A stretch of DNA of 64,000 nt from Bacteroidia bacterium. GTDB taxonomy: Bacteria > Bacteroidota > Bacteroidia > Palsa-965. Positions 44,310 to 64,000 of this stretch are shown piece by piece (the stretch's first letter is position 1; each line of letters opens with the position of its first letter). Position numbers and translations under genes: made by a program. The stretch lies in NCBI GenBank assembly GCA_038237845.1, contig JBBRYH010000010.1, positions 25,692 through 89,691 of the forward strand, given 5' to 3'. The notes under the pieces were generated by a model. That model saw nothing but the letters and a program-made list of their open reading frames with translations. It made no database searches and was not told the origin of the DNA.

Positions 44310-44338
44310 TTATACAATTATATTATATCTTTGACCCA

Positions 44339-45291: not shown

Positions 45292-45323
45292 TAGTTCACT
45301 AGAGGGTTATTGCCACAAAGACA

Positions 45324-45339
45324 CTCCGCCGCGGCGGAG
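45324..45339. repeat. Perfect 16-bp GC palindrome CTCCGCCGCGGCGGAG, flanked by direct CACAAAG repeats. Shares the TCCGCC core with the GC-rich element.
   Basis: Read directly. Unusual in an AT-rich intergenic region. Confidence 0.6.
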
Positions 45340-45442
45340 GCACAAAGAAAGGGAGACTCTTTAGAAAATACCATAGCCCAATAACATGAATCTAAGAGTT
45401 GACTAATCACCAAAACTAATCATCAATCACTATCTTTATAAT

Positions 45443-46579: not shown

Positions 46580-46856
46580 AAACATCCACATCATTGAATT
46601 TCCTCAAAGGGTTAGCTAAACCCCGAATTATTAACATATCCCTGTGTAAATCAGGATTTTGGACATTGTAATCCCAGTCCTAAAAACCCGTATTTTTGTT
46701 ATTGCTCGGAACACCCTGATTTTTAAGGATATCGCCGGGCGAATTCACTAAACGATTCATTTCGTAGTTAATAGTTCGGAGATGTTGGTTCGGAGAAATC
46801 CAGAGAACTAATTTTATCTCCAAACGAAGAACTCCGAACAAAGAACTTATATATAA

Positions 46857-48281: not shown

Positions 48282-48282
48282 T

Positions 48283-48759
48283 ATGTACAGGTTTCTCATT
48301 TTTGTTGGATTGATTTTTTCATTGGTAAATTTTTCATCATGCGATAAAAATCGTTTGTATGATGAAAATCGTGATGTGAAAGATGGTGTTTGGGATATTA
48401 AACAACAATTGGTTTTTGATTTTGATGTTCCCGATTCGGTAACGAAATACAATTTCTATTTCAACATTCGCAATACCGATGATTATCCTTACAGCAACAT
48501 TTATGTTTTTTTCAAAACAACTTTTCCTAATGGAAAAACCGGAATTGACACCGTTGAATTTCCACTAGCAGATGAAAATGGAAGATGGTATGGAAAAGGA
48601 CAAGGAGATGTACATGATTGTCGCTTAGTTTTCCGACAGGGCGTTCGTTTTCCATTAGCAGGAAAATATCACATGGAAATTCAACAAGCCATGCGAATGG
48701 AACAATTGCCCGGTGTCATTAATGCAGGAGTCCGCATCGAAGAAGCAGAGAAAAAGTAG
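48283..48759 (+). CDS. gldH: Gliding motility lipoprotein GldH
   Basis: MYRFLIFVGLIFSLVNFSSCDKNRLYDENRDV...YPYSNIYVFF, 158 aa, lipobox FSSC. ATG lies 2 nt after the ricT-like stop. The listed 265-aa ORF is an alternate-frame artefact upstream of 48283. Confidence 0.8.
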   Translation: MYRFLIFVGLIFSLVNFSSCDKNRLYDENRDVKDGVWDIKQQLVFDFDVPDSVTKYNFYFNIRNTDDYPYSNIYVFFKTTFPNGKTGIDTVEFPLADENGRWYGKGQGDVHDCRLVFRQGVRFPLAGKYHMEIQQAMRMEQLPGVINAGVRIEEAEKK

Positions 48760-48797
48760 TCGGAATTGCACTTCCTTTTACTTAACTTTGAGTTAAC

Positions 48798-49742
48798 ATG
48801 AAAAAATTTCCCCGAATTATTTTCTTTCTATTTCCCATTTTGTTTTTCTGCATTACCTGTAGAGTTGATGAAATAAAAAAAACATACAAGACCAAACATG
48901 TTATTGTGATTGTTGTAGATGGAGTTCGCTATTCTGAAAACTGGGGCGATTCAACTCATTCGAGAATTCCATTTCAATACACAACACTATTTCCTCAAGG
49001 CGTTATGCTTACCAATTTCAGAAATAACGGATATACTTGGACAAATGCCGGTCATGATGCGCTGACAACTGGTGTATATGAACCCTTAGATAATGGCGGA
49101 AATCAGTTTCCTTCAGAGCCATCGATGTTTCAATATTGGAGAAAATTTACAGGATCTCCTGCAGAAAAAGCATGGGTGATTACTTCAAAAGATAAATTGT
49201 ATGTGCTTGCAAATACTGCTGATCAGGAATATCAATCGAAGTTTATGCCGCGCTATGATTGTGGAATTAATGGCCCATTTTCAGGGTACAGAGATGATCA
49301 AACTACAAAAGATCATGTCATCGCAACACTTTCTCAATATCATCCAGATTTGATGTTGGTAAATTTTCGTGAACCAGATTATAGTGGTCATACAGGTGTC
49401 TGGAATAATTATCTCACAGGAATTGCGAGCACCGATCATTATTGCTCTTTAATCTGGGATGCATTGCAAAGTGATCCCTATTATGCCGGCACTACCACAA
49501 TGATTATTACGAATGATCATGGCCGTCACTTGGATAATGTTTATGATGGCTTTGTAAGTCATGGTGATAATTGCGAAGGTTGCCGTCATATTGCTTTCTG
49601 TGCAGCGGGTCCTGATTTCAAAAGGAATTTCAGCAGTTCAGTAGCTTATGAACAGGTTGATATTCCAAGAACCATTGCAGAATTGATGGGCTTTCCGATG
49701 CCAACGGCTCCTGGAAAAGTGATGCGCGAAATTCTTCGCTAA
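48798..49742 (+). CDS. Secreted alkaline-phosphatase-superfamily protein (phosphodiesterase or sulfatase-like)
   Basis: HVIVIVVDGVRYSENWGD metal-site-like motif. Signal peptide. Confidence 0.4.
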   Translation: MKKFPRIIFFLFPILFFCITCRVDEIKKTYKTKHVIVIVVDGVRYSENWGDSTHSRIPFQYTTLFPQGVMLTNFRNNGYTWTNAGHDALTTGVYEPLDNGGNQFPSEPSMFQYWRKFTGSPAEKAWVITSKDKLYVLANTADQEYQSKFMPRYDCGINGPFSGYRDDQTTKDHVIATLSQYHPDLMLVNFREPDYSGHTGVWNNYLTGIASTDHYCSLIWDALQSDPYYAGTTTMIITNDHGRHLDNVYDGFVSHGDNCEGCRHIAFCAAGPDFKRNFSSSVAYEQVDIPRTIAELMGFPMPTAPGKVMREILR

Positions 49743-49828
49743 ATCTTCACATCATTTATTCATTTTCCTCAAACACTTATCCTTTTCACTCTTAGCGGGG
49801 ACCATTTTTCATTACTTTTGATTCCGAA

Positions 49829-52168
49829 ATGGCAGACGAAAAACCTATAGAAAAAGCAGCAAAGAATTCTAAAAATTCAAGCTCAGCAAAACCAAGTCAT
49901 AAACGTTGGATTCGATTTTTCTGGATTCTATTATTGACTCCTGTTGCTGGAATTGTATCGCTTGTTTTGGGAATCGCCATGTTCGCCGATCTTCCAGACA
50001 TTGAGCAATTAACAAATCCCGAAAGTAATCTTGCAACGGTTTGTTATTCTGCAGATGGAAAAGAATTAGGAAGATTTTATCTCGAAAATCGGGTTTCAGT
50101 TCAGTATAAGGATATTGATCCTGATGTTATTCATGCATTAGTTGCAACAGAGGATGAACGTTATTACGAACATTCAGGTATTGACGGAAGAAGTTTGGGT
50201 CGTGTTTTTATTAAAACATTTGCTGGTGGAGATCGTAGCTCTGGAGGAGGATCAACCATTACACAACAGCTTGCAAAAATGCAGTTTCACGCAAAAGAAG
50301 CTGAACACGCAACAAAAACACAACGTGCTTTCCAAAAATTAAAAGAGTGGATCATTGCAGTTCGACTTGAGCGCTTGTTTACGAAAGATGAGATCGTCGC
50401 ACTTTATTTAAATAAATACGATTTTAATTATAATGCGGTTGGTATTAATTCTGCAGCGAAAGTTTATTTCTCCACTACTTCCGATTCATTGAAAATTGAA
50501 GAAGCAGCAGTGCTGGTAGGAATGTGTCAGAATCCTTCACGATGGAATCCATTAATTTTTCCTGACAGCGCAATGAAGCGTAGAAATCTTGTGATGTACC
50601 AAATGGAACGCAATGGATTTATCACAAAACACCAATACGATTCTTTAAAAGCGCTTCCAATTGTTACACACTTCAATCCCGAATCACATAACGAAGGACT
50701 GGCTCCTTATTTCCGAGAATATCTGAGAGAAAATTTCATGAAGAAATGGTGTTCGGAACATTTGAAACCGAATGGCAAGCCTTACGACATGTATCGCGAC
50801 GGTTTAAAAGTTTATACGACGATTGATACACGAATGCAAACGTATGGTGAACAAGCAGTGGCTGAACACATGGCCGACTTGCAGAAGAATTTTGATATTG
50901 AATTAAAAGACAAAAGAAATCGTCCCTTCAGTTGGAAGGTGAAAAAAGAAGAGATCGATCAGATTTTAAATTCAGGGAAAGTTCGTTCCGATCGTTATCA
51001 TCATATGAAAAAAGGCGGTTCCTCTGATGCAGAAATTGAAAAGGCCTTCAATACAAAAGTGAAGATGAATGTGTTTTCATGGCATGGTGATATTGATACG
51101 ATGTTGTCGCCAATGGATTCTATTCGATATTACAAATCATTTTTACAAACAGGATTTATGGCAATGGAACCACAGACAGGATATATCCGTGCCTGGGTGG
51201 GAGGAATTAATTTCAGACATTTTCAATACGATCACGTAAAAGTTAGTAAGCGTCAAGTAGGTTCGACTTTCAAACCATTTATTTATGCGCTTGCTATTCA
51301 AGAAGGATATTCGCCTTGCGATCAGGTGCCATGTATTCGCACTTGTATTCCGAATGAAGATGGAAAAACAGAATGGTGTCCGAATAATTCATGGTCGAAA
51401 CAGGAAGAAGCAAAATACAGTGGTAAAATGATCACGTTGAAAAAAGCATTAGCGCTTTCTATCAATTATGTTTCTGCTTACATCATGAAACAATTCGGTC
51501 CGCATGCTGTTGTTGATTTTGCACGCAACGTAGGAATCACCTCGCCATTGGAAGCTGTTCCTTCATTATGTTTGGGTACTGCAGATATTAGCTTATACGA
51601 AATGGTTGGTGCGAATAGCACATTTGTAAATAAAGGAACATGGATTGAACCAACTTTTATCACGCGCATTGAAGATAAAAACGGAAAAGTGTTGGAAGAA
51701 TTTATTCCGAAATCAAAAGAAGCATTGAGTGAAGAGAAAGCTTATTTGATGATTAATCTAATGCGCGGAGTTGTTGATATTGGAACAGGAGGACGATTAC
51801 GAAGTACTTACAAAATTTTAAATCCTGTGGCAGGAAAAACAGGAACAACACAAAACAATTCCGACGGATGGTTTATGGGATTAACTCCTGATTTAGTTGC
51901 AGGTGTGTGGGTAGGAGGCGAAGATCGTAGTGTGCATTTTGATAGAACAGCGGAAGGACAAGGTGCTTCCATGGCACTTCCGATATGGGCAAAATTTTTC
52001 AAGCGGGTTTATGCAGATAAATCTTTAAAAATTTCTCAAGGAGAATTTCCGAAACCAAAAGGAAAAATAATGATGGATTTAGATTGTTCTAAATTCGATA
52101 AAGATGATGGTCCGATTTTCGATGATCCGAATTCTGGAATTTTTGGAGATGATGGTAGTTATCCTTAG
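49829..52168 (+). CDS. mrcA: Penicillin-binding protein 1A (bifunctional transglycosylase/transpeptidase)
   Basis: GT51 motifs ATEDERYYEHSGID, GGSTITQQLAK, RKxxE. Transpeptidase STFKP and KTGTT. 779 aa. Confidence 0.9.
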   Translation: MADEKPIEKAAKNSKNSSSAKPSHKRWIRFFWILLLTPVAGIVSLVLGIAMFADLPDIEQLTNPESNLATVCYSADGKELGRFYLENRVSVQYKDIDPDVIHALVATEDERYYEHSGIDGRSLGRVFIKTFAGGDRSSGGGSTITQQLAKMQFHAKEAEHATKTQRAFQKLKEWIIAVRLERLFTKDEIVALYLNKYDFNYNAVGINSAAKVYFSTTSDSLKIEEAAVLVGMCQNPSRWNPLIFPDSAMKRRNLVMYQMERNGFITKHQYDSLKALPIVTHFNPESHNEGLAPYFREYLRENFMKKWCSEHLKPNGKPYDMYRDGLKVYTTIDTRMQTYGEQAVAEHMADLQKNFDIELKDKRNRPFSWKVKKEEIDQILNSGKVRSDRYHHMKKGGSSDAEIEKAFNTKVKMNVFSWHGDIDTMLSPMDSIRYYKSFLQTGFMAMEPQTGYIRAWVGGINFRHFQYDHVKVSKRQVGSTFKPFIYALAIQEGYSPCDQVPCIRTCIPNEDGKTEWCPNNSWSKQEEAKYSGKMITLKKALALSINYVSAYIMKQFGPHAVVDFARNVGITSPLEAVPSLCLGTADISLYEMVGANSTFVNKGTWIEPTFITRIEDKNGKVLEEFIPKSKEALSEEKAYLMINLMRGVVDIGTGGRLRSTYKILNPVAGKTGTTQNNSDGWFMGLTPDLVAGVWVGGEDRSVHFDRTAEGQGASMALPIWAKFFKRVYADKSLKISQGEFPKPKGKIMMDLDCSKFDKDDGPIFDDPNSGIFGDDGSYP

Positions 52169-52215
52169 AGGGAATTATAAAATGAAAAACTTTATTAATC
52201 AGAATCGATAATTCA

Positions 52216-52914
52216 ATGAACAAAGTAGTTTCAAACGCCGAAGAAGCAATCAGCGATATAAAAGACGGAGCGACCATCATGCTCGGTGGTTTCGGATTGT
52301 GTGGCATTCCCGAAAATTCAATCGCAGCATTGGTAAAGAGTGGCGTAAGAAATCTCACCTGCATTTCTAATAATGCGGGAGTGGATGATTTTGGAATTGG
52401 CCTTCTCTTAAAAACGCGTCAGGTGAAAAAAATGATTTCATCTTATGTGGGTGAAAATGCAGAATTCGAAAGACAATTACTAAGCGGCGAATTGGAAGTT
52501 GATTTAATTCCGCAGGGAACACTTGCAACACGTTGTATGGCGGCAGCCTACGGAATGCCGGCTGTATTTGTACGTGCAGGAGTAGGGACAGAAGTTGCCA
52601 TTGGGAAAGAAACAAGGAATTTCAACGGAATAGAATACTTAATGGAATATGCATTTGATGCAGAATTCTCCATTGTAAAAGCATGGAAAGCTGATACGCA
52701 CGGAAATTTAATGTTCCGGAAAACAACGAGAAACTTTAACGTGCCAATGGCAATGGGTGGAAAAATTACGATTGCCGAAGTGGAAGAAATTGTTCCGGCA
52801 GGTGAACTTGATCCCGATTGTATTCACGTTCCCGGGATTTATGTGCATCGCGTGTTCAAAGGAGAGAAATTTGAAAAGCGAATTGAGCAAAGAACAGTAA
52901 GGAAGAAGTCATAA
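52216..52914 (+). CDS. scoA: 3-oxoacid CoA-transferase subunit A
   Basis: IMLGGFGLCGIPE, 232 aa. Confidence 0.9.
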   Translation: MNKVVSNAEEAISDIKDGATIMLGGFGLCGIPENSIAALVKSGVRNLTCISNNAGVDDFGIGLLLKTRQVKKMISSYVGENAEFERQLLSGELEVDLIPQGTLATRCMAAAYGMPAVFVRAGVGTEVAIGKETRNFNGIEYLMEYAFDAEFSIVKAWKADTHGNLMFRKTTRNFNVPMAMGGKITIAEVEEIVPAGELDPDCIHVPGIYVHRVFKGEKFEKRIEQRTVRKKS

Positions 52915-52936
52915 TTTATAATTGAATTTTTTTACA

Positions 52937-52968
52937 AATCACTTCCGCCCAGGCGCACACTAATTATT
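52937..52968 (+). repeat. Copy D of the GC-rich element (AATCACTTCCGCCCAGGCGCACACTAATTATT), 13 nt upstream of ORF 52969
   Basis: About 26/33 identity to copy B. Confidence 0.6.
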
Positions 52969-53265
52969 ATGAAACCATACATCGACTTAGAAGGAAAAAA
53001 AATCTACCTACCACAATCTGTAGATGCACACAATTTTGAAATTTGTGTAATGGGAGATTTTTTCCTGTTGTGTAAAAAAGTAACTCAACGTTATTCACAG
53101 GCAACAGGTGTTTTGATGGAACGATCAGGAAAAGAATTAATTTTCCATAAATCAGTAAGCTCTTATTTTCTTAGAACGTTCCCGCTAAACAAAAGTGAAT
53201 TTTATAAAATCAATATCGACTATCAAGCCAACAATGGTCCAATTTCAATTGTTCACGAGGAATAA
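52969..53265 (+). CDS. Hypothetical 98-aa protein inserted between scoA and scoB
   Basis: ORF only. No recognised motif. Confidence 0.4.
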   Translation: MKPYIDLEGKKIYLPQSVDAHNFEICVMGDFFLLCKKVTQRYSQATGVLMERSGKELIFHKSVSSYFLRTFPLNKSEFYKINIDYQANNGPISIVHEE

Positions 53266-53372
53266 GTTATTAGTTATTTGCGAGTAGTTATTAGAAAATA
53301 GTTTAGAAGACTCATTTTAATTAATAATCAATTGCTGATAACCAATCGCTAATCACTAATAACTCAACAACC

Positions 53373-54032
53373 ATGCTAGACAAAAACGGAATTGCAAAAC
53401 GGATTGCCAAAGAAGTAAAAGACGGGAATTACGTAAATCTCGGAATCGGAATCCCAACTTTGGTTGCAAATTATATTCCCAAAGGAATTGAAGTAACCTT
53501 GCAATCTGAAAATGGAATGTTAGGCATGGGACCTTTTCCTTTTGAAGGTGATGAAGATCCTGATTTGATAAATGCTGGAAAACAAACCATCACTGAAGTT
53601 CCTGGCACATCGTATTTTGATTCTGCATTAAGCTTTGGAATGATACGTGCAGGAAAAGTTGATCTTACTATTCTTGGTGCAATGGAAGTAAGCGAAGAAG
53701 GCGATATTGCTAATTGGAAAATTCCGGGTAAAATGGTGAAGGGAATGGGCGGTGCGATGGATCTTGTTGCTGCAGCGAAAAATATTATTGTAGCCATGCA
53801 GCATGTGAACAAAGCCGGAGAATCCAAATTACTTCCGAAATGTTCGCTCCCATTGACAGGAGTAAAATGCGTTCGTAAAATTGTAACAGAGTTAGCGGTA
53901 GTAGAAGTAATTCCAGGAAAGGGATTTAAACTACTTGAGCGCGCACCAGGAGTGAGTGTAGAAGAAATCATTAAAGCCACAGCAGGAAAACTAATTGTTG
54001 AGGGAGAAATTCCTGAAATGAATCTGGATTAA
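53373..54032 (+). CDS. scoB: 3-oxoacid CoA-transferase subunit B
   Basis: Conserved GxGGAMDL region (MVKGMGGAMDLVAAAK), 219 aa. Confidence 0.9.
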   Translation: MLDKNGIAKRIAKEVKDGNYVNLGIGIPTLVANYIPKGIEVTLQSENGMLGMGPFPFEGDEDPDLINAGKQTITEVPGTSYFDSALSFGMIRAGKVDLTILGAMEVSEEGDIANWKIPGKMVKGMGGAMDLVAAAKNIIVAMQHVNKAGESKLLPKCSLPLTGVKCVRKIVTELAVVEVIPGKGFKLLERAPGVSVEEIIKATAGKLIVEGEIPEMNLD

Positions 54033-54054
54033 TCGAGTCAACCTTCGATACGAC

Positions 54055-56016
54055 TTGTCGAAAGAATATTTTCATATGAATTCAATTCGCAATTTGACAA
54101 ATCTACGCAGTCTTGTAAAAACAACTTTCAGAAAAATAATTAGTCGCTGGTATTTAATTGTACCGGCGATTTTACTTTTTATTTATGTAGCAATTCGTGC
54201 ATCTCGACTTTCTATCACTTGGGATGAAGCCAATACTTTTTTCGAATATGTACGTACTCCGCGCTGGCTGCCGGAAAGCTACAATTACATCTCTGCCAAC
54301 AATCACCTGCTGAACACGTGGCTGATGAAAGGCTCCGTTTTCCTGTTCGACGAAAGTGAATTTGCTTTACGTCTTCCGAATGTTATCGCGGGTGGATTTT
54401 ATTTTTACGCGGCTGCCCTGCTCGCAAAATGTATTGCGGAGAAGCGCTGGCAGATCTTTATCGCTTTTATTTTATTATGCGCGAATCCTTTTGTGCTGGA
54501 TTTTTTCAGCGTCGCGCGCGGCTATGGAATTTCAATCGCACTGCTGATGCTTGGAATTGTGCAGATCACAAAATATGTTTTCAGAAATCAGCAAATCAGC
54601 AATGGAATTTATGCACAGCTTTTCTTAGCACTCGCCGTTATCGCCAACCTTACACTGCTCCACGCGATGCTGGCCGTTTCTTTTATATTGATGCTGCACC
54701 GTTTTATTTTTCATCGCACGGAGCATCCTACACGCACAATAATGCTCTTTTCAATTATTCCTTTCTCAACGCTGCTCCTGCTTGTTCCTTACTTCATCAA
54801 GCTGAAGAACGCCGGGGCCTTTTTTTACGGCGAAGAAGTAAAATCTCTTGGCGATACATTCCTGTCCTTATCCAAAGCTTCGGCATATTACACTTCCTAC
54901 AGTTATATCCTGGCTCCTGTAATGACGGTGCTTGTTGCCGCCATTCCGCTGATCACGGTAATTCATGTCATGCGAAATCCTTTGACCGTGATGAAAGACA
55001 CGCGGGGAAAATGGCTGGTGTTTATCACGCTCTTGTTATTTTTTACCATCGCCGGACCAATGTTGCAGCACTTGTTTTTCGGAACCAACTTTCTTTCCGG
55101 GCGCACAGCTTTATTTTACATTCCACTGATCAGCCTGAATTTTTTAGGAGTGCTGATGCTGCTTCCCAATCGGTTGAAAAATATTCTGCTGATGCTGGCA
55201 GGAACATTTTCAATCACCCATTTATGTTTCGCGGCTAACACCCGTTTTACGTACGACTGGAAAGAGCAGGCTGATGTAAAAGATGCGATGATGGAATTAA
55301 AAAAGAGGAACATCCCGGTTGCGGAAAATTGCTTCGCTGATATTCTTTCGACCGACCTTCCTTATGAAAAGCAGGTCAATTATTACCGGATGCGATTTGA
55401 AATGAATAACTATTCGCATGCAGCAAGAAATGAAAGTGTGCCCATGTGCAGCAGCTATTATCTGGACAAAAACGGGTACCGCAATCGCGAACAGGAAACA
55501 AAACACGCAGAACCGATCTGTAGTTTTTCGATGAGCAGCACCTGGCTCTTTTATTTTCCTCTTGAAAGGATGAAGCTAAAATTACACTCCGTGAAAGAAG
55601 TCTGGCAGGATTTTGAACATGAAGACCCTTATCTTGAATTAAAAACGGACACTATTTATTTCGGCGACAAGGGAACATTTGCAAATGCAGAACATCCATA
55701 CAGCATCAGTGTGCCGATAGAAGTTCCCGATTCGGTAAAAGGAAATCTCGTGGCGACAATGAATTGCAGATTATATTATTACACGAGAAATACTTCAGCG
55801 CTGTTGGTTTTCGGATTTGATGATGGCGGGACAGAGACTTGGGAAGCAATGCATATTACAGAATTGCCTGAAAAACCCGGAACATGGTCCATTACTTCAT
55901 GGACGCGCCCTGTGCCTGCAGGAACAAAAAAAGTGCGGGTTTATATTTGGAATTATGATAAAATTCCGGTGCTGATGGATAATGTGACGGTGCGATTGCT
56001 TGCTTATGGACAGTAA
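54055..56016 (+). CDS. ArnT/PMT-like GT-C-fold glycosyltransferase (653 aa): N-terminal polytopic membrane domain with a DE first-loop motif plus a C-terminal periplasmic beta-rich domain. Compositionally GC-rich.
   Basis: LSITWDEANTFFEYV (DE motif), FALRLPNVIAGG (GT39/83-like). Paralog of 58278-59954. Confidence 0.65.
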   Translation: MSKEYFHMNSIRNLTNLRSLVKTTFRKIISRWYLIVPAILLFIYVAIRASRLSITWDEANTFFEYVRTPRWLPESYNYISANNHLLNTWLMKGSVFLFDESEFALRLPNVIAGGFYFYAAALLAKCIAEKRWQIFIAFILLCANPFVLDFFSVARGYGISIALLMLGIVQITKYVFRNQQISNGIYAQLFLALAVIANLTLLHAMLAVSFILMLHRFIFHRTEHPTRTIMLFSIIPFSTLLLLVPYFIKLKNAGAFFYGEEVKSLGDTFLSLSKASAYYTSYSYILAPVMTVLVAAIPLITVIHVMRNPLTVMKDTRGKWLVFITLLLFFTIAGPMLQHLFFGTNFLSGRTALFYIPLISLNFLGVLMLLPNRLKNILLMLAGTFSITHLCFAANTRFTYDWKEQADVKDAMMELKKRNIPVAENCFADILSTDLPYEKQVNYYRMRFEMNNYSHAARNESVPMCSSYYLDKNGYRNREQETKHAEPICSFSMSSTWLFYFPLERMKLKLHSVKEVWQDFEHEDPYLELKTDTIYFGDKGTFANAEHPYSISVPIEVPDSVKGNLVATMNCRLYYYTRNTSALLVFGFDDGGTETWEAMHITELPEKPGTWSITSWTRPVPAGTKKVRVYIWNYDKIPVLMDNVTVRLLAYGQ

Positions 56017-56099
56017 GCATTAGTTATCTAAAGCCTCACTCAGAATATTGAGAAAAGTCTGGTGATATTGCTATTACCCATCTTATATTCGCATTTGAA

Positions 56100-57897
56100 A
56101 TGAATAAACGAATGCGAAATTTTAAGCAGTTAGTGGTCAGGAATCTGATGGTAATTTTTTTATTGGCAACTGCTTTCGTAGCGTTTTGTGCTTCGTTTGA
56201 TAGAATGGGAGTGAATGAAGGATGGAGACGAACAGTTTTCATGGATGGTCGTGGTTACTATTCTTATCTGCCGGCACTTTGTATTTATAACGACCCTTCC
56301 TGTTCGTTTTATTCCAAGCAATCAGCAGCACAGCCCGACTCCGCGAATTTCATGAATAAAGTTGATGGGAAAACTTGTCAATAAATATTTTGTAGGTGAA
56401 GCATTGTGTCAGGTCCCTTTTTTTACACTTTCCCATTTGTATGCAAAGTTATTTGATGAAGAAACAAACGGCTATTCGAAGCCATACCAATATGGTGTTG
56501 GAATCGCTGCTGTGTTTTATTTTTTGCTGGGATTGTTTTTCCTCTGGAAATTTTTGAAATCCTTTGAATTCAGGATTGGTGTAATTCTGTTCGTATGTGT
56601 GTGTGTAGCCTTTGGGACGAATCTTTTTTATTATGCGGTTTATGAACCATCCATGGCACATGTTTACTCCTTTTCTTTTATCACAGGATTTTTATTCTTT
56701 ACCCGCTCATTTCTCTTATCACCATCAGGAAAGGGAATAATTATTATCGCAGCGTTTACGGGAATGATTACATTGATCAGGCCGGTTGATATAATGATTG
56801 TTTTTGCTTTTCCTTTTCTTGCAGGAAATTTTGAAAATTTAAAAAATGCAATGGGTTGGATGAAGAAACATTTACTCTTTCTTGTTCCCGCACTTGCGCT
56901 TTTTCTTTTAATTGTATCCCTTCAGCTTTTGCTTTATTATTGGCAAACAGGTCATTTCTTCCTATGGAGTTATCAAAGTGAAGGATTTGATTTTGCTCAC
57001 CCGCATATTTATAGAACGCTTTTCAGCTATGAGAAAGGCCTTTTTATTTATACTCCGATTGCATTTGTTTCGCTTTTCGGATTGTTAGTAATGCCTTTTC
57101 GTTCACGCTATTTATTCCTCACATTACTTCCTGTACTTGGGATCATTGTTTTTGTCGTTTCTTCATGGCACGACTGGAGATATGGATTTTCTTTTGGATT
57201 GCGGGCATATATCGAATTTTACGCATTATCTGCTTTTACTTTGGCCTACCTGATTGATTTTGCTTCAAAGCGAAGAATTATTTTCGCTTTTACAGGATTG
57301 ATTTTTTCAGCACTGATTAGTTTCTATTTAATCCAGCAATATCAATTTAACCATCGGATCTTGCACCCGGGGTCAATGAATAAAGAACGGTATTACCTTG
57401 TTTTTCTTCACACTGAAAAAAAGTACGAAGATACTTTATCGCGAATTCCTTATGTGATGGAATCCGAAGGGGATTTTAATGACATGGAAGGCTCTGTTGA
57501 TTGGCCGGGACTTGAAACCATTAAAAAGGGCCTTTCTCATTCCGGGGAGGCTGCTTCACGCATTGATTCCGCTTCACCCTACTCGGCTGGTTTTTGTCGT
57601 AGCATGTCGGATGACGATTTTAATACACCTTCAACAATCAAGATCTCAGCCTGGGTCTTAAGAAAAAACGAGAACGATAATGGAAGTATAGGGATTTACC
57701 TAACAAGTAATGATAGTGTTTTGTTCTCGAAAGATATTGATCTCAACGAGCTTACCAAAACAGGTGCATGGACCAATGTGAAGCAAGAAATAATTATTCC
57801 GGCAAGAAAAACGGAGCGTGAATATTTAAGGGTTCTTTTTTTTCACAGCAGCGGAACAACTTATATTGATGACTTTTCTGTAGAAATTGTGAAATAA
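56100..57897 (+). pseudogene. GT-C-like polytopic membrane protein (paralog of 35961-37283) disrupted by a +1 frameshift in an A4 run at 56370-56373
   Basis: Frame 1 ...DGRGYYSYLPA...NFMNKVDGKTCQ*. Frame 2 resumes GKLVNKYFVGEALCQVPFF, homologous to GKIIDKYFSGVAVLQLPFF of the intact paralog. Deleting one A restores DGKLVNKYF. Confidence 0.55.
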
Positions 57898-57964
57898 AGA
57901 AGCCAAAATTGACTGGACTTCTTTATTTCACAATCCGAGTAGTTATCCGAAGACCTAAGCCTGT

Positions 57965-58255
57965 TTATTGATTAATGTACTTTGAAATTTTAATGTTCCC
58001 ATTAACATTGCTTCTTATAAAATAAATCCCTTTGTTTTCTGTAGTGATATCCACATCTATTTCTGACGATGATGTAGTTGCTTCGTAGACAATTCTGCCA
58101 GCTATATCAAATACTGTGATGGAATTTATTTCTTCTCCACTGTTAGAAACAATTTTGAATTGTCCCGAACCGGGATTGGGATAGATTGTTACATCGTTTT
58201 GTACAATTGAATTTGTTTCCGGGGGAATAACATTTGCAGGTTCTGGATTTGCCAT
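57965..58255 (-). pseudogene. Orphan T9SS type-A C-terminal sorting-domain fragment with no cargo or signal peptide
   Basis: ...TIYPNPGSGQFKIVSNSGEEINSITVFDIAGRIVYE...GIYFIRSNVNGNIKISK is a complete Por_Secre_tail, but nothing precedes it. Confidence 0.5.
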
Positions 58256-58277
58256 ACGGTACAAGTATGCACCACAT

Positions 58278-59954
58278 TTCGGTGAAAGTGAATTTGCTTT
58301 GCGCTTACCGAATGTTTTGGCAAGTGGTATTTATTTTTATGCCTCCGCCGCTTTAGCAGAAAAACTGACCAAGAAGAAATGGCAGGTCATGATTATTTTT
58401 CTCTTATTGAGTTTGAATCCTTATGTGCTTGATTTTTTCAGCCTCGCACGGGGATATGGTATTTCTATTGCGATGATGATGCTCGGCATTTTACAAATTA
58501 CAAAGTACATTCTAGGGAATCACGAAATCAAAAATGGAATGTATGCGCAACTCTTTTTTTCTGCCGCCGTCTTCGCAAACCTGACGATGATTCATGTTTT
58601 GCTGGCATTCTCATTCTTATTGGTGATCAATCGTTTTGTTTTTCATCGTAATAACAAAATGCTACGTGCAGGACTCCTTTTTTCTGCAATTCCATTGAGC
58701 ACCCTGCTCATTTTGATTCCTTACCTGAATCATATGAAAGCTGCCGGAGCATTTTTTTATGGAGAAGAAGCAAAATCATTAGCCGATACTTTTTTATCGC
58801 TGTCGAAAGCAATGTCGTATGACCGCTTCTATGACAAACAGCTAACCCCTCTGCTAACGATTTTGTTTTCGGCTATTCCTCTCATTTCAGTGACTTATGC
58901 CATGCGTAATGTAAGTACGGTAATGAAAAGCGGGCAGGGGAGATGGTTGGTGTTTATTACGTCGGCCTTGTTTTTTACCATCGCCGGACCGATGTTACAG
59001 CATCTGCTTTTCAAAACAAATTTTCTTTCCGGAAGAACAGCTTTGTTTTATATTCCGTTGATCGGATTGAATTTGATCGGATTGATGATTTTATCTCCCA
59101 TGAAATTGAAAAATGGCTTGTTGATGCTCACGGGATTATTTTCTATCATTCACTTTTCTTTTTCGAATAATTACTACTTCAGTTATGATTGGAAAGAACA
59201 GGCTGATGTGAAACAAGCTATGATTGATTTGAAAAAGGAAAATATCCGTTTGACGGACAACTGCTTCGCGAATATCCTTTCAACAGATTTACCTTTCGAA
59301 AAACAAATTAATTATTATCGGATGAGATTGAATCTGGCCAATTTCTCTCATGCTGCTAGGAGAGAAGAAGTGGCTGCCTGTAGTAGTTATTATCTGGACG
59401 TCGACGGACATGACAGAGTGAAGGCCGCAAATAAAAGTCGGTACTTAAAAAACATTCACGACTATTCTGTGAGTGGGACATGGCTGTTTAATTTTCCTGT
59501 ATTGAAAAGTTCTCCGACATTGAACCTTGTCACCGAAGTCTGGCAGGATTTCGAACACGAAGATCCTTATCTCGAATTAAAAACAGACACGATTTATTTT
59601 GGTAATAAAGGAACATATGCGAATAACATTCATCCATTCAGTATTGGTGTTCCGCTCAATATTCCGGATTCCGTAACAGGAAATTTGGTGGCGACAGTTA
59701 ATTGCCGATTGTATTATTACACAAGAAATACATCTGCATTGCTAGTTTTCGGGTTTGACAATGGGAATGCTGAAACTTGGGAGGCCATGCACATTACGGA
59801 ATTGCCTGAAGGACCAAAAACCTGGAGTATTACTTCATGGACCAGACCTGTTCCTTCTGGCACTAAGAAGATCAGAGTTTACCTATGGAATACAGACAAA
59901 ACTCTGGTGTTAATGGATAATGTAGCCTTACGATTGCTTGTAGATGCAAATTGA
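58278..59954 (+). pseudogene. 5'-truncated, AT-rich paralog of GT-C gene 54055-56016. Homology begins at FGESEFALRLPNV; the N-terminal ~100 aa including the DE-motif loop are absent.
   Basis: Alignment with paralog A. Upstream sequence is the antisense of the CTD remnant. The only in-frame start is a TTG at 58299. Confidence 0.5.
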
Positions 59955-60013
59955 AAATATTTGAGGCAATTTCCCCCTCTCAAAATCGTATATTTGCTCA
60001 ATATTATTATCCA

Positions 60014-60742
60014 ATGAAAAAACTCTCCATCGTAATACCGGCCTACAATGAAGCCAGGACAATCCATCTTATCCTCAACAAAGTACTCGCAGTGGAATTA
60101 CTCGGCGGTTTTGAAAAGGAAATTATGATCGTCAATGATTTTTCATCGGATGCTACGAAAGAAGTAATTGAAAAATATATTGCGGAACATCCTGCTGCGA
60201 ATATTCGTTTGTTCAATCAGCCGAAGAACATGGGTAAAGGCGCTGCACTTCACAAAGGAATTGAAATTGCAAGTGGCGATTATATTGTTATTCAGGATGC
60301 CGATCTCGAATATGATCCGGAAGAATTTAATGTCCTGCTTAAGCCGGTTCTTTCAGGATTTGCTGATGTTGTTTTCGGTTCTCGTTTTATGGGCGGAAAA
60401 CCGCATCGCATTTTATTTTTCTGGCATACCATTGGAAATAAATTCCTCACCAAACTTTCCAACATGTTTACCAATCTGAATCTTTCAGATATGGAAACCT
60501 GTTACAAATTGTTCGATGCAAAAATGGTTCAATCACTTTTGCTGAAAGAAAATCGTTTCGGATTTGAACCAGAAGTCACTGCAAAAATTTCAAGAATAAA
60601 AGATGTCCGCATTTACGAAGTAGGAATTTCATACTACGGTCGTACCTATGAAGAAGGAAAAAAAATCGGATGGAAAGATGGCTTCCGCGCGATCTGGTGC
60701 ATTTTACGTTACAATCTTTTTGACACCCGCCACCTGAAATAA
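60014..60742 (+). CDS. GT2 polyprenol-phosphate sugar synthase (DPM1/ArnC/GtrB-like)
   Basis: [44 protein letters not shown] (DxD). Confidence 0.85.
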
Positions 60743-60746
60743 GGGG

Positions 60747-63065
60747 ATGAATTTCAAACACACATTTGTAAGAGTTTTCAGCGACAAAGGATTGTTGCTC
60801 ACACTCTTTTTGAGTTTACTCATGATGTTATTGTTTTATGGAAAACTCTTATTGCATCCGGGTCATACTTATTTTGGAGCGCAAGGCGATGGCATGCAAA
60901 TTTATTACGAGACACTTTTTCATATTAAATTTGATACGGCTTGGTGGTCACAAAACAGTGTAAATTATCCTTACGGTGAAAGTATTTTCTTTACCGGCGC
61001 AATGCCTTTCGTAAATAACCTGGCAAAACTTTTCGGAACTTCAGCCGGCCCACTTGGTGTAGCAATCATTAATTTGATGATGATTTTTTCGCCGGTGATT
61101 GGGGCGCTTTTTATTTACGCCATCTTTCGTCATTTGCGTTTGCCTTGGCATTATGGCGGAGTGTGTGCTACTTTCATCGCTTATCTTTCTCCGCAATTGT
61201 TGCGGATGTATGGACACTATTCTTTGCAATGGGTTTTTCTCATTCCTGCAATGTTTTATTTATTACTTCGGTTTTATGATCAGCCGAGTGTACTAAAAAG
61301 TTTTACAATTGCATTTCTTGTTTTTTTAGGCGCTTCTACACATTTATATTTTCTGGCATTCTTTGGCGCAATCGGCGGAGCTTATTGGGCGATTTTGTTT
61401 TTAACCCGAGACAGAGGCTTTGGAAGATTTACTTATGTACTCAAACATGCAGGAATTCAATTTGTCTTGCCAGTTCTGATCCTGCAAACTTTAGTAATTA
61501 TGTCGGACCATGTTGCAGACAGAACCATCGCTCCTTGGGGATTCCTTTTTTATCATTCTAATTTTAGCGGCGTATTTTTCCCTTCAGGAAAAATATATGA
61601 AGAATTTTTTAGATTATTCAGCACTCCTGAGAATGTCGATTTAGAAGGAATTGCTTATGTAGGAATTGCCGCAATTATTGGATTCATTACCATTATTATT
61701 ATCCAACTAGTCCGCTTGTTCCGTGGGCGTGTTAAACTCTTTTTAGAAGTAAGCGATAATAAAGTTCTCAATATATTTTTCTGGACTTCACTTGTTATGT
61801 TATGGTTTTCATTTGGACATCCGTTCGTTGGATCGCATGAGGACTGGTTGCCTTATCTTGGTCCGATACGACAGTTTCGTTCTGTTGGTCGCTTTACTTG
61901 GGTCTTTTTTTATATCATAAATATTATTGCAGTATATCGATTGTATAAAATTGTACAGCAACGAAAGGTAATTTCTTATGCAATTATGTTACTAATATCT
62001 TCTCTTCTTTTTATTGATGCTTATTCACTTAATAAAGAAATGCAGGATAAATTCAATAATCATATTTCTGCTTTGGATGATGAAATGAATTTGTTGCCTG
62101 AAAATGCTTGGATGAAAAATTTCAATGCTAAAGAGTATCAAGCCATTTTACCTTTGCCATACTTTCATATTGGTTCAGAAAATCTCTGTCGCCCTTCTCC
62201 GGATGCGAAAATTGTTCAATGGAGTTATGTCGTCTCATTAAAAACAGGACTTCCTTTAATGGGAGTTGCTTCTGCTAGAGTTTCATTGGGACAAACAGCC
62301 AATATGGTGCCACTAGTTTTGGATCCGATTTTACCGATACCGGTTTTAAAAGATATTAAAGATACACGTCCATTATTGATTGTAGTAAGAGAAGAATTAT
62401 TGGATGAATTCGAAAGAAAAATACTTTCATTTGCAAAGCCTATTGGTACTTCGACTAATTATAAAATCTATTCCTTAGACCCTGCTGCATTGCGAAGTTT
62501 GCCTGAAATGCGTTACAATGAAATCAAATCGAGTTATGTGGCCTCTAAACATTTCTCATCAGGAGTTTTTTCAACAACGGATTCAGCAGCTTTTTTCATT
62601 TATCATTCTTTTGATCATTCGAAAAATAAAAATGCCTATAGAGGAGATGGAGCATACGAAGGAAAAATAATAGACAACAATGTCATATTTGATAGTACAA
62701 TTTCTATTCCTGGAAATTACGTAGGTTCTTTCTGGTTTAATAATATGGACGGTGATATTTATCCGAGAATGACCATTGAGGTTTTTTCAACTGATCCAAG
62801 TGATAAAGTAAAACCATTTTACTTTTATTCGAATGCAAGTGTGCAAACAAAAGCAATGGATGGACATTGGGGCCTGATAGAATTCCCACTGACTGTAGTG
62901 GCTCCGAATGGACATGTCAAAGTAACCGTGTGGAACCGAGAAATGAAAAAGATAGACGTTTTTCAAATTGATGAATTATTAATTCGCCCTGCAACAACTG
63001 ATTTATATTTACTAATAGGTGATACTATTATCAGAAACACAAGAACATATTTTCCACACAAATGA
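60747..63065 (+). CDS. Large polytopic membrane protein (772 aa) with a periplasmic C-terminal domain. Candidate GT-C glycosyltransferase playing a YfhO/ArnT-like role.
   Basis: N-terminal motif GAQGDGMQIYYETLFHI. About 12 TM helices. Soluble C-terminal half ending ...IDVFQIDELLIRP, like other cluster members. 4-nt gap to the upstream GT2 and ATGA overlap with the downstream GT2. Confidence 0.55.
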   Translation: MNFKHTFVRVFSDKGLLLTLFLSLLMMLLFYGKLLLHPGHTYFGAQGDGMQIYYETLFHIKFDTAWWSQNSVNYPYGESIFFTGAMPFVNNLAKLFGTSAGPLGVAIINLMMIFSPVIGALFIYAIFRHLRLPWHYGGVCATFIAYLSPQLLRMYGHYSLQWVFLIPAMFYLLLRFYDQPSVLKSFTIAFLVFLGASTHLYFLAFFGAIGGAYWAILFLTRDRGFGRFTYVLKHAGIQFVLPVLILQTLVIMSDHVADRTIAPWGFLFYHSNFSGVFFPSGKIYEEFFRLFSTPENVDLEGIAYVGIAAIIGFITIIIIQLVRLFRGRVKLFLEVSDNKVLNIFFWTSLVMLWFSFGHPFVGSHEDWLPYLGPIRQFRSVGRFTWVFFYIINIIAVYRLYKIVQQRKVISYAIMLLISSLLFIDAYSLNKEMQDKFNNHISALDDEMNLLPENAWMKNFNAKEYQAILPLPYFHIGSENLCRPSPDAKIVQWSYVVSLKTGLPLMGVASARVSLGQTANMVPLVLDPILPIPVLKDIKDTRPLLIVVREELLDEFERKILSFAKPIGTSTNYKIYSLDPAALRSLPEMRYNEIKSSYVASKHFSSGVFSTTDSAAFFIYHSFDHSKNKNAYRGDGAYEGKIIDNNVIFDSTISIPGNYVGSFWFNNMDGDIYPRMTIEVFSTDPSDKVKPFYFYSNASVQTKAMDGHWGLIEFPLTVVAPNGHVKVTVWNREMKKIDVFQIDELLIRPATTDLYLLIGDTIIRNTRTYFPHK

Positions 63066-63787
63066 ACCTGAGCATTATTCTTCCTTCTTATAAAAGTGCC
63101 GATATATTGCGTGAGCAATTACCGCCTTTTATGGCTTGGCTGAAAATGAAATCATGGACAACAGAAATAATTATTGTTGATGATGGTTCTGATGATAGTG
63201 GTGCAACTGGAAAAGTTGCGGCAGAAAATGGCTGCATATTTTTTCAACAGGAAGTAAATAAAGGGAAGGGTGCTGCAGTAAGAAGAGGAATGCTTGCCGC
63301 AAAAGGAGAATACAGAATTTTTACAGATGCAGATATTCCTTTTGAGTATGAAGCTATTGAACTATTTTTTCATTATGTAAAAGAAAAGGAATTTGATATT
63401 GCGATTGGTGATCGACGTCTTCCTGAATCAAAATATTTCAGCGAAATAAAAGGTGCGAGAAAAATGGGAAGTAATATTTTTACATTTTTTGTTGGACGAT
63501 TTATAACTACCGGATTTTCGGATACACAGTGCGGCATCAAAGCATTCAAAGGAAAAGTTGCAGACGATTTGTTTTCAGTTGCAACTGTAGATGGATTTGC
63601 ATTTGATGTGGAACTACTTTACATCGCCCTTAAAAGAAACTACGACATCAAACGTCTACCCGTTCATTTCCGAAGCTCTCACGACGGCTCCTCTGTAAGT
63701 TTATTGAAACACGCTCCTGGAATGCTCATGGATCTTTTTCAAGTGAAATTGAATCATATACGAGGGAGATACTTGAAAAAAAATTAA
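63062..63787 (+). CDS. GT2 polyprenol-phosphate sugar synthase (DPM1/Alg5-like), second copy
   Basis: LSIILPSYKSADIL, IIIVDDGSDDSG, NKGKGAAVRRG, FTDADIPFE. Confidence 0.85.
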   Translation: MNLSIILPSYKSADILREQLPPFMAWLKMKSWTTEIIIVDDGSDDSGATGKVAAENGCIFFQQEVNKGKGAAVRRGMLAAKGEYRIFTDADIPFEYEAIELFFHYVKEKEFDIAIGDRRLPESKYFSEIKGARKMGSNIFTFFVGRFITTGFSDTQCGIKAFKGKVADDLFSVATVDGFAFDVELLYIALKRNYDIKRLPVHFRSSHDGSSVSLLKHAPGMLMDLFQVKLNHIRGRYLKKN

Positions 63788-63873
63788 ATTTTGAGTTCTG
63801 AATTTTGAATCAATCAAGATATTTCGAATAATTAAAATTAGCATTACCTTCACCTTCAATTCAAAATTATTTC

Positions 63874-64000
63874 ATGAACAGAGACATCACCAACGTAATA
63901 CGCTATTTCATGGATGAGTGGATTCCACCCGTTATCCGTGATAGTCGCTGGTTTATGTATCCGTTTTTTATGTTTGCCTATCGCGGAAAAAATATCCGTG
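63874..64000 (+). CDS. Partial CDS at the window end (N-terminus MNRDITNVIRYFMDEWIPPVIRDSRWFMYPFFMFAY), probably another membrane component of the glycosylation cluster
   Basis: Open frame from the ATG at 63874 to the window end. Confidence 0.35.
   Translation, partial: MNRDITNVIRYFMDEWIPPVIRDSRWFMYPFFMFAYRGKNIR

Follow-up and report, generated by a model that had tools for sequence, protein, structure and literature searches.

Gene remnants joined at a probable microhomology junction in a variable GT-C gene cluster of a Bacteroidia bacterium

Described systems and their likeness to the locus

The closest described process is microhomology-mediated deletion, through illegitimate recombination or replication slippage. 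As in that process, two unrelated genes are truncated and fused at about 11 nt in the locus described here, and likewise no mobile element lies at the junction. The locus differs in that the undeleted parent allele is unobserved and the match on one side is deduced from a protein fragment. The feature lies in the window, i.e., the whole 64-kb stretch of DNA that was analysed (Table 1).

Homology-facilitated illegitimate recombination was reportedly described in Acinetobacter by de Vries and Wackernagel in 2002, and it has also been described in pneumococcus. This process and surface-polysaccharide mosaics share several traits with the locus: a 1.7-kb tract of foreign composition is 99% identical to another lineage and is flanked on both sides by the best-conserved parts of the gene, the gene content of the locus differs between relatives, and an illegitimate junction lies 2.3 kb beyond the imported tract. 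In contrast, the link between import and scar is unproven because composition suggests that the frameshifted gene M and the C-terminal sorting domain (CTD) lie outside that tract.

As for the two truncated genes, each has well-described counterparts. The CTD remnant keeps the usual YPNP...GIYF...K motifs of type A domains of the type IX secretion system (T9SS) and gives a full-length match above the curated thresholds; unlike these domains, it stands without cargo or signal peptide, as a remnant of about 108 codons ending at the recombination junction. The membrane protein genes A and B belong to a family that resembles GT-C/PMT_2 glycosyltransferases (PF13231; CAZy GT39/GT83-like; ArnT, PglB, Emb, Pmt) in its multi-helix membrane domain, predicted GT-C fold, acidic W-D-E residues and neighbouring genes for GT2 enzymes like polyprenyl-phosphate-sugar synthases, and most members match PMT_2. 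However, A and B themselves are not detected by Pfam, members of the family carry a CBM-like beta-sandwich of their own at the C-terminus, and TM1 and the putative catalytic loop are altogether absent from B', the remaining part of B.

Table 1 Features around the junction, in window coordinates
Feature	Position	Strand	Basis
Gene A, full-length GT-C type membrane glycosyltransferase (predicted fold) with C-terminal CBM-like beta-sandwich	54055..56016	+	Model, Foldseek, family
Gene M, second, unrelated GT-C-like membrane protein, frameshifted	56100..57897	+	P0102 alignment
Hairpin between the convergent stops of M and the CTD ORF	57886..57934	.	Folding energy
3' remnant of a T9SS cargo gene	57965..58288	-	PF18962, TIGR04183, P0224 alignment
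Stop codon of the cargo remnant	57965..57967	-	
Type A sorting domain of the cargo remnant	~57974..58186	-	
Linker ahead of the CTD (~34 aa)	58187..58288	-	
Putative junction microhomology TTCGGTGAAAG	58278..58288	.	F-G-E-S on plus (B), L-S-P-K on minus (cargo)
B', 5'-truncated GT-C gene (= A residues 98-653)	58278..59954	+	Homology to A, homologue lengths
GT2 (polyprenyl-phosphate sugar synthase-like), 772-aa DUF6311 membrane protein, second GT2	60014..63787	+	PF00535, DUF6311 matches

The sorting domain remnant

The 99-aa minus-strand ORF at 57965-58264 matches PF18962 (Por_Secre_tail) from profile position 1 to 74 of 75 with an E of 2.2e-13 and 50.7 bits (cutoff 27), and also TIGR04183 (E 7e-13, 48.3 bits against a cutoff of 23). 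The domain ends two residues ahead of the stop codon and thus has the extreme C-terminal position. No signal peptide or cargo was found in the same frame upstream, which contains stops and encodes no hydrophobic N-terminus; beyond the linker, the frame runs antisense to B until it meets stops. The first-pass annotation had noted a complete sorting domain without cargo or signal peptide on this strand, and the profile match and upstream stops bear this out. The T9SS context consists of a GldH_lipo gene about 9 kb upstream and three other CTD-bearing ORFs in the window. Composition at third codon positions is native-like (GC3 0.272, window background 0.299 +/- 0.042). Local duplication was rejected as a source of the CTD, since the other CTDs in the 64-kb window are at most 32% identical to it.

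A word-indexed search for close relatives of the CTD ORF returned the query itself only. In an exhaustive HMMER scan of 1.8 billion proteins, the nearest relative was P0224 (51% identity, E 5e-23), a 128-aa fragment without context and the sole relative above generic CTD similarity; the alignment covers SLSPKC onwards. The upstream part of P0224 is weakly FG-GAP-like (E 0.007, below threshold), and an FG-GAP repeat protein is the probable lost cargo. No conserved CTD-only family was seen in the word-indexed and HMMER protein searches.

The truncated glycosyltransferase gene

Homology of B to A runs only from A residue 98 (FDESEF in A, FGESEF in B) to the end, with 66% amino acid identity; at the nucleotide level, 54346-56002 in A and 58278-59940 in B are 68.6% identical. 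B' begins at TM2, and TM1 and the first extracytoplasmic loop are absent. Residues 1-97 are wholly missing, including W56, D57 and E58, which are conserved at 90% or more across the family. It had been reported that B starts mid-protein and lacks about 100 N-terminal residues together with the DE loop, and the comparison with A puts the loss at about 97 residues. The frame of B is closed by a stop at 58179-58181, and ATG, GTG and TTG are all absent from there to 58299. Its first possible start is the TTG at 58299, and the NCBI call (P0001) starts at the ATG at 58389. An upstream start or exon could have restored the N-terminus, but tblastn with A residues 1-110 against the whole 64-kb window recovered only A itself and 13 aa at the start of B. 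An invertible or alternative 5' cassette for B was ruled out, as the window holds no second copy of the N-terminus.

The lengths of homologues underline the truncation. All of the close homologues of B (about 30) are 620-646 aa long, and no truncated form like B' occurs among about 100 homologues. No relative above 71% identity to B was found in the protein databases. The Bacteroidota -7 motif TAnnTTTG is missing near the junction but also upstream of A and M, hence its absence is uninformative, and a sigma-70 promoter scan at the junction is not meaningful for this phylum.

The ORF of B' is uninterrupted over 551 codons and deviates at 1 of 116 highly conserved family positions, the same as in intact members. 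Conservation at invariant sites was used to assess decay in place of dN/dS, which is unsuited here because synonymous sites are saturated at about 70% nucleotide identity. Since B' shows no such decay, the event appears to be recent, and the CTD still scoring as a full domain points the same way. The absence of decay in B' would equally fit continued selection.

The junction

Homology of B to A and to the G2 orthologues begins at 58278, and homology of the cargo remnant to P0224 extends through LSPKC, encoded by 58288-58274. As P0224 aligns through LSPKC, sequence derived from the cargo gene and from B overlaps over 11 nt. This overlap (58278-58288) is readable by both parent frames, and each reading matches its own homologues. 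The E-values exclude chance, and the sequence is best read as a microhomology junction. The crossover would lie somewhere in 58277-58289; a breakpoint at 58265-58278, as first proposed, was essentially right and is refined by the 11-nt overlap. The microhomology on the cargo side is deduced from the 51%-identical protein fragment P0224, according to which the cargo linker would carry ...CTTTCACCGAAATGT... at the nucleotide level.

Neighbouring genes and arrangement in relatives

Gene M, to the left of the remnants, is itself damaged. A +1 frameshift (the run GGGAAAA at about 56368-56374 has one A too many) splits it into ORFs 56100-56384 and 56362-57897. With one A removed, a 598-aa M is obtained, which aligns with P0102 over 598 of 598 residues at 61% identity and with 0 gaps, across the frameshift site. 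Logan contig L016, whose identity to window 44076-57525 is 100%, carries the frameshift too. M matches the NCBIfam LA_3751/LA_3752 putative glycosyltransferase weakly (E 4e-9) and is native-like in composition (GC3 0.335). The hairpin that follows it has folding energies of -24.5 kcal/mol on the plus and -27.4 kcal/mol on the minus strand (z-scores of -7.0 and -9.1 against shuffles) and looks like a bidirectional terminator. L014 and L002 likewise have a hairpin at this place.

To the right, the GT2 genes downstream of B' resemble AglJ, PpgS and dolichyl-phosphate hexose transferase. Window 58278-63998 gives a contiguous blastn alignment to L005 and L008, and an intact orthologue of B (68-70% to B) stands directly ahead of GT2-DUF6311-GT2 in L005, L006, L007 and L008. 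The adjacency of B and GT2 is thus taken, from this synteny, to be ancestral. L003 and L004 carry a single such GT-C gene between ScoB and GT2. The sister lineage (L014, L002) is ordered ScoB, A, an M-type gene, a hairpin and a Por_Secre_tail remnant in convergent orientation. The present contig is thus not alone in having a convergent T9SS gene behind the M-type gene. A comparison with relatives had been suggested in the first-pass annotation, and it recovered an intact orthologue of B ahead of GT2 in some genomes and a convergent CTD remnant in others.

Different GT-C genes sit between ScoB and GT2 in different relatives. The M-type gene of L014, M2, is 33% identical to M, and an orthologue of M (61% amino acid identity) occupies this locus in L009, a low-GC relative. 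The variable gene content, the frameshift in M and the import of the A body described below all point to a plastic locus. The undeleted arrangement was not found in the genome collection, the metagenome scans or the protein databases. A scan of the genome collection with A gave 3 loci only, and a metagenome scan with M gave no matches. With GT2, 80 metagenome loci were obtained, none closer than the known relatives and none with the undeleted arrangement. A literature search on orphan CTDs or glycosyltransferase pseudogenes yielded nothing relevant.

Gene A and its imported body

Gene A encodes 653 aa from a TTG start, or 646 aa from the ATG at 54076. In its AlphaFold2 model (pLDDT 89.3), helices 32-51 (TM1) and 56-98 (EL1) precede helix 102-127. 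Foldseek against the PDB gave a probability of 1.00 to PglB, ArnT, EmbA/B, AglB, AftA/B and Pmt4. The TM-scores lay at 0.32-0.43 when normalised by the query and reached 0.53 when normalised by the target. The C-terminus was matched to CBM16. The membrane domain is accordingly predicted to have the GT-C fold. PF13231 (PMT_2) is matched by 24 of the 34 aligned family members, with a best E of 6e-10. A and B gave no Pfam matches even at E<=10, and no direct Pfam or PDB sequence matches were found for A, B and M; membership in GT-C therefore rests on family members and on the predicted fold. W56, D57 and E58 are near-invariant in the family and lie in the first extracytoplasmic loop of the predicted fold, and the motif is present in A. 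An acidic motif in this loop is established for PMTs, ArnT and OSTs.

The gene is a mosaic. Its 5' part (54055-54257) has native composition, and its body (54258-55994) is 99% identical in nucleotides to L014, with flanks at 62-87% (about 80%). The GC3 of the body is 0.491, against 0.299 +/- 0.042 for the window background and 0.446 for that of L014. Residues 29-67 are 74% identical to the A of L014 and 67-77% identical to G2 orthologues of more distant genomes, and their KIISxW motif is common to G2. The last 7 codons are in frame, give a family-typical length and are not L014-like. Because the body is 99% identical and the flanks only about 80%, the body appears to have been imported recently from another lineage. 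The first-pass annotation had called A and B paralogues; they are homologous, but with a recently imported body A would not be a simple paralogue of B.

Origin of the junction

We consider it probable, with some reserve, that the junction is genuine and recent, that it arose by illegitimate recombination at short microhomology inside a variable cluster of GT-C genes whose products face the periplasm, and that a single deletion is its simplest history. The ancestral order would have been ScoB, A and M rightward, the hairpin, a T9SS cargo gene leftward (probably FG-GAP) and, past a divergent promoter region, B followed by GT2, DUF6311 and the second GT2. A single deletion could have occurred between two copies of the 11-nt TTCGGTGAAAG, of which one would have lain in the linker just ahead of the cargo sorting domain and one in B, at codons 98-101. 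Three pieces would have been lost: the body of the cargo together with its signal peptide, the intergenic region, and B up to and including codon 97. What is left on the minus strand is a sorting domain with nothing to sort, which could not reach the periplasm and is predicted to be dead. B' would likewise be dead, since it lacks TM1 and the putative catalytic loop as well as a promoter and a start context. The two truncations, the overlapping reading frames at the junction, the full-length homologues and the recurrence of the junction with a second assembler are direct observations, and the undeleted ancestor and the loss of function are deduced. The recombination scar proposed in the first-pass annotation is confirmed, both genes being truncated, and its reading of the region is supported throughout, except that under an insertion only one native GT-C gene would have been split.

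The import boundary in A (codon 68) and the truncation of B (codon 98) lie 30 codons apart, which counts against a deletion, under which it would be a coincidence of about 1 in 10. Such proximity is expected under a one-step insertion.

This insertion, by homology-facilitated illegitimate recombination into a single native GT-C gene X between ScoB and GT2, is a possible though rather unlikely history. Foreign DNA with the A body, M, the hairpin and part of a cargo gene would have entered with its left end anchored through homologous recombination near codon 68, where the conserved WDEANTFFEYVR region lies, and an illegitimate joining at the 11-nt microhomology would have linked its right end to codon 98 of X. 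A would then be X(1-67) plus a foreign body and B' would be X(98-end), only 30 codons of X being lost. The CTD fragment would be the ragged end of the donor DNA, with no resident cargo gene destroyed; one native GT-C gene would be split and its function retained in A. The closely spaced breakpoints, the single gene of this type in L003 and L004 and the order of A, M-type gene and convergent CTD gene in the donor clade (L014) are consistent with this history. It is also favoured by the A body, which is foreign in identity and has a GC3 nearer to that of L014 than to the window; the identity tract spans the whole L014-alignable region, no part of A shows orthologue-level divergence, and residues 29-67, with their KIISxW motif, are no closer to L014 than to G2. 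On the other hand, M and the CTD look native rather than donor-like, and only 54258-55994 is foreign-like. L014 carries M2 instead of a close relative of M, whereas the M orthologue sits at this locus in L009, and the last 7 codons of A suggest that the right-hand crossover was homologous and fell within a gene already resident there. A simple deletion cannot be separated from such a one-step insertion of foreign DNA. The finding is one of ordinary pseudogene formation.

A broader proposal, which we regard as improbable, is that the stretch from ScoB to GT2 is a cassette-switching locus, where GT-C genes would be swapped between species, sometimes together with a convergent T9SS gene with which they could form an enzyme-substrate pair. 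The scar would then be a by-product of one such switch, left by a one-sided homologous import with an illegitimate end, and not a product of random decay. If so, in these Bacteroidota periplasmic or surface glycosylation would be diversified by allele and cassette replacement, as in O-antigen and capsule loci.

It is very improbable that two unrelated metagenomic pieces were joined at 58265-58290 by the assembler or in binning. The window does belong to an NCBI contig (90,468 bp) of metagenomic origin, the Logan contigs from SRR19962011 break at 57496-57525, and two nearby SNPs indicate strain heterogeneity. Nevertheless, the de Bruijn contig L001 (7214 bp, same run), made by a different pipeline, crosses the junction unbranched and has 2 mismatches to the window in 6505 nt, both distant (60926 and 60939). 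L001 and L016 stem from one run, probably the source of this assembly, and they are a check on the assembler rather than an independent sample. The parents have no more than about 11 nt in common, and an assembler with k>=31 would not be misled by so short an overlap; the junction region is not repeated elsewhere in the window. Both sides are syntenic with relatives (M then CTD in L014, B then GT2 in L005 and L008), and the alignment of M to its homologue runs uninterrupted through the Logan break. An assembly artefact had been named as what might undo the first reading, but a single contig from the second assembler reproduces the junction without branching.

Equally little probability is given to a maintained, functional arrangement, in which B' would serve as a truncated, non-catalytic GT-C-like protein or the CTD as a small protein of 96 aa. 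The intact 551-codon frame of B', with 115 of 116 highly conserved positions kept, the complete CTD and the NCBI annotation of both ORFs as proteins fit such a role. Against it, the CTD ORF has no signal peptide, and B' lacks TM1 and the near-invariant W-D-E loop, the loss of one TM being expected to invert the remaining topology. There is no start codon ahead of 58299 and no Bacteroidota-type -7 motif nearby; the truncated form recurs in none of the roughly 100 homologues, no conserved CTD-only family emerged from the searches, and the frameshift in the neighbouring M fits local decay.

Finally, an IS element inserted in the cargo gene, as seemingly in the sister lineage, and then deleting outward into B is scarcely to be expected: the CTD remnant of L014 (the last 28-42 domain residues) borders on an HTH ORF of the plus strand whose match to IS66 TnpA is weak (E 0.012), and three sister-lineage contigs (L002, L014, L015) end at or near this spot, as they would at a repeat, but that match is below threshold, no IS, transposase ORF, repeat or inverted-repeat end lies at 57898-58310 or nearby, and IS-mediated adjacent deletions normally leave the IS in place.

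Implications for annotation

The practical use of the results lies mainly in annotation. Two calls in this genome, a "T9SS sorting domain protein" of 96 aa and a "hypothetical protein" of 521/551 aa, are best treated as gene remnants, and the 510-aa call in M as a frameshifted gene. The CTD, B' and M calls should not be counted as functional or used as seeds of protein families. The scar in itself opens no new question, and the function of the GT-C/GT2/DUF6311 cluster is the more interesting target. The locus is nonetheless a small, clear example of change in a Bacteroidota glycosylation cluster, in which a near-identical 1.7-kb allele appears to have been transferred between genomes about 20% divergent, next to differences in gene content between relatives and a probable microhomology junction.

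Gene remnants at the junction

The minus-strand ORF downstream of M, a second GT-C-like gene, encodes 99 aa (96 aa from the ATG in the NCBI call) and matches PF18962 over profile positions 1-74 of 75 (E 2.2e-13), which corresponds to a complete type A T9SS sorting domain (CTD). Its TIGR04183 match reaches 48.3 bits at a cutoff of 23. About 30 further sense codons precede the ORF in the same frame, then stops, and neither a hydrophobic N-terminus nor a cargo was found in this upstream frame. The first-pass annotation had described a complete Por_Secre_tail lacking cargo and signal peptide, and this description holds. When 1.8 billion representative proteins were scanned exhaustively with HMMER, the closest relative of the tag was P0224, a 128-aa fragment (51% identity, E 5e-23); the second-best match had an E of 4e-11, and P0224 alone scored well beyond what CTDs share in general. 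The cargo that was lost probably belonged to the FG-GAP type, since the upstream part of P0224 weakly resembles FG-GAP, with a sub-threshold E of 0.007, and P0228 (975 aa), another CTD relative, is an FG-GAP protein. The hairpin next to the ORF (folding energies of -24.5 and -27.4 kcal/mol; z of -7 and -9) shows that the cargo gene still has an intact 3' end and terminator. A different hairpin occupies the equivalent position in the sister lineage.

On the plus strand, the earliest possible start of the truncated GT-C gene B (B') is a TTG at 58299, and an in-frame stop lies at 58179-58181. Homology to the full-length GT-C gene A begins only at A residue 98 (66% aa identity; 68.6% nucleotide identity between A 54346-56002 and B 58278-59940). 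Close homologues of B all have 620-646 aa, B being the sole truncated one, and the missing N-terminus is not encoded elsewhere in the 64-kb window. Hence, the reported loss of about 100 N-terminal residues stands, with no alternative N-terminus in the window.

Neither A nor B has a direct Pfam or PDB sequence match. PMT_2 (PF13231) is matched by 24 of the 34 aligned family members, and in a PDB search with the AlphaFold2 model of A (pLDDT 89.3), PglB, ArnT, EmbA/B, AglB, AftA/B, and Pmt4 were matched at probability 1.00; on these grounds, A is classed as a GT-C fold enzyme. The C-terminal beta-sandwich of the model gave CBM16-like PDB matches. TM1 is modeled at residues 32-51, the first extracytoplasmic loop as two helices at 56-98, and TM2 at 102-127; W56, D57, and E58 are conserved at 90% or more in the family alignment. 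In characterised GT-C enzymes, this loop is the site of the catalytic acidic motif. B' starts at TM2, without TM1 and the first loop, in agreement with the earlier remark that B lacks the catalytic DE loop.

The 551 codons of B' are uninterrupted; among 116 positions that are highly conserved in the family, the protein deviates at one, as intact peers do. Since the signal peptide, cargo, TM1, catalytic loop, and start context are all missing, the CTD ORF and B' have presumably lost their function, and it is very improbable that the remnants are still functional.

Features around the junction, with third-position GC content (GC3)
Feature	Position	Strand	GC3	Remark
Gene A	54055-56016	+		
A, 5' part		+	0.224	native-like
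A, L014-like tract	54258-55994	+	0.491	z = 4.6 vs window background; near L014
Gene M	56100-57897	+	0.335	native-like
Extra A in M	~56368-56374	+		GGGAAAA run
Hairpin	57886-57934			20 bp, 17+3 bp stem; between convergent stops, overlapping last codons of M
CTD ORF	57965-58264	-	0.272	native-like
Microhomology	58278-58288			11 nt
Gene B (B')	58278-59954	+	0.41	upper edge of native range
Window background			0.299 +/- 0.042	39 ORFs
L014 background			0.446	

Breakpoint and assembly

Homology with A, and with the orthologues from loci L002, L005, L006, and L008, begins in B at TTC, 58278. In BLASTP, P0224 aligns to the minus frame of the window from SLSPKC / TLSPKC on. The LSPKC codons occupy 58288-58274, so that cargo-derived sequence overlaps the start of the B-derived sequence. 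The overlap, TTCGGTGAAAG, encodes F-G-E-S on the plus strand and L-S-P-K on the minus strand, each fitting its own homologues; by a rough estimate, a chance match of four residues to P0224 is of the order of 1e-5. Such an overlap is the signature of illegitimate recombination at microhomology. The breakpoint coordinates of the first-pass annotation were confirmed and refined, and its interpretation as a deletion or recombination event that destroyed two genes was right as well. The scar is a further instance of a known phenomenon, now resolved to an 11-nt microhomology.

L001, a contig from a second assembler (Logan; 7214 bp, run SRR19962011), crosses the junction unbranched. From the last part of M it extends over the CTD ORF, B', GT2, DUF6311, a second GT2, and a methyltransferase gene; of 6505 positions, two differ from the window (60926 and 60939), both distant from the junction. 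L016, from the same run, is 100% identical to window 44076-57525. SRR19962011 is probably the source sample of the window; the comparison therefore tests the assembler and is not an independent sample. A k-mer chimera is unlikely because the parents share only about 11 nt and the junction sequence is not repeated elsewhere in the window. The assembly artefact that had been considered at the outset thus retains a very small probability.

The Logan assembly breaks inside M, where two contigs overlap by 30 nt (57496-57525), and both L001 differences fall in the DUF6311 gene. Both are signs of strain heterogeneity in the sample or of a branch in its assembly graph.

Lesion in M and mosaic structure of A

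A single additional A, also present in the Logan contig, splits M in two, and only the 510-aa downstream part is annotated by NCBI. Without this base, a 598-aa product aligns gap-free to P0102; in relatives, M is GT-C-like with 598 aa. The truncation and frameshift events are recent, as the ORF of B' is uninterrupted with 1/116 deviations, the CTD scores as a whole domain, and the M lesion is single-base.

In A, a 1.74-kb tract is 99% identical at the nucleotide level to L014 9763-11478 (MAG GCA_030154765.1), with 18 differences, 10 of them clustered at 54630-54702. Its flanks show 62-87% identity per 100 nt, the flanking genes about 80%, and its ends are the gene's two most conserved stretches. 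Both contexts are unbranched in their own Logan assemblies (L016 and L015); the tract is therefore a real, recent inter-lineage allele transfer, most likely into the window genome. A is a mosaic gene.

Comparative context and origin of the scar

The interval between ScoB and GT2 varies in gene content. It holds G1 and G2, the latter a B orthologue (68-70%), in L005, L006, L007, and L008, and a single G2-type gene in the more distant L003 and L004. G1 is a distant paralogue (~25%), and the G2 type includes both A and B. Beyond G2, L005-L008 continue with GT2, DUF6311, GT2, and methyltransferase; the B-GT2 adjacency is ancestral. L009 (GC 0.37, window-like) has a G1-like gene and an M orthologue (61% aa), and neither CTD nor B at the locus. 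L002 and L014, whose flanks are about 80% identical to the window, carry A, M2 (33% identity to M), a hairpin, and a 45-aa minus-strand remnant matching Por_Secre_tail positions 48-75 of 75 (E 0.001), followed on the plus strand by an HTH ORF that shows weak IS66 TnpA-like similarity (E 0.012). A convergent T9SS gene 3' of an M-type gene is common to the window and this sister lineage and broken in both.

A single microhomology-mediated deletion is the best supported explanation, and a somewhat better than even one. Starting from the order A, M, hairpin, cargo, B, GT2, one deletion would have taken B codons 1-97 together with the divergent intergenic region and the body of the cargo gene; in a separate event, homologous recombination at the conserved gene ends would have exchanged the body of A. 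This model is favoured by the native-like GC3 of M and the CTD, the M orthologue in L009, the sister-lineage layout, and the last seven codons of A, which are in-frame and family-length yet not L014-like.

The main rival, a one-step insertion, is rather unlikely but well ahead of the others. A foreign A body, M, and part of the cargo gene would have entered a single native GT-C gene, with a homologous anchor near codon 68 and an illegitimate join at codon 98, leaving the A 5' part and B' as its remains. In favour of this model, the two breakpoints lie just 30 codons apart, no orthologue-level A sequence is present, the native residues 29-67 of A are no closer to L014 A (74% identity) than to other G2 genes (67-77%), and L003 and L004 have a single-gene arrangement; the native-like GC3 of M and the CTD speaks against it. 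An IS-mediated deletion has very little probability. The feature is best described as an ordinary recombination scar with a pseudogene pair, in a locus with cassette variation and recent inter-lineage transfer.

Surrounding neighbourhood

Of the convergent T9SS gene, the sister lineage retains just the final 28-42 CTD residues (L014 13409-13777; L002 5862-6065). L014 ends in the HTH ORF, L002 within the CTD remnant, and L015 within M2, which suggests a repeated mobile element at these contig ends. Among 80 JGI loci that have a GT2 homologue, ScoB is repeatedly linked to GT2 with various GT-C-like genes, and none of these loci is a closer relative. As seen from window 60014-63787 and L017-L096, many metagenome contigs of Bacteroidota link GT2 to ScoB and to various membrane proteins of GT-C-like or DUF6311 type; these surroundings are a conserved, uncharacterised periplasmic glycosylation neighbourhood. 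The G1-like gene after ScoB in L009 (6328-8403) is called as ORFs of 481, 131, and 36 aa and aligned by tblastn to G1 over 650 residues, and is possibly a further GT-C gene disrupted at this locus. L006 has an insertion between G2 and GT2, a 528-aa gene of unassigned family (11951-13537, minus strand). An extra 620-aa PMT_2 gene, absent from the window, lies between PBP1 and ScoA in L006 (4701-6563) and L014 (5796-7658).
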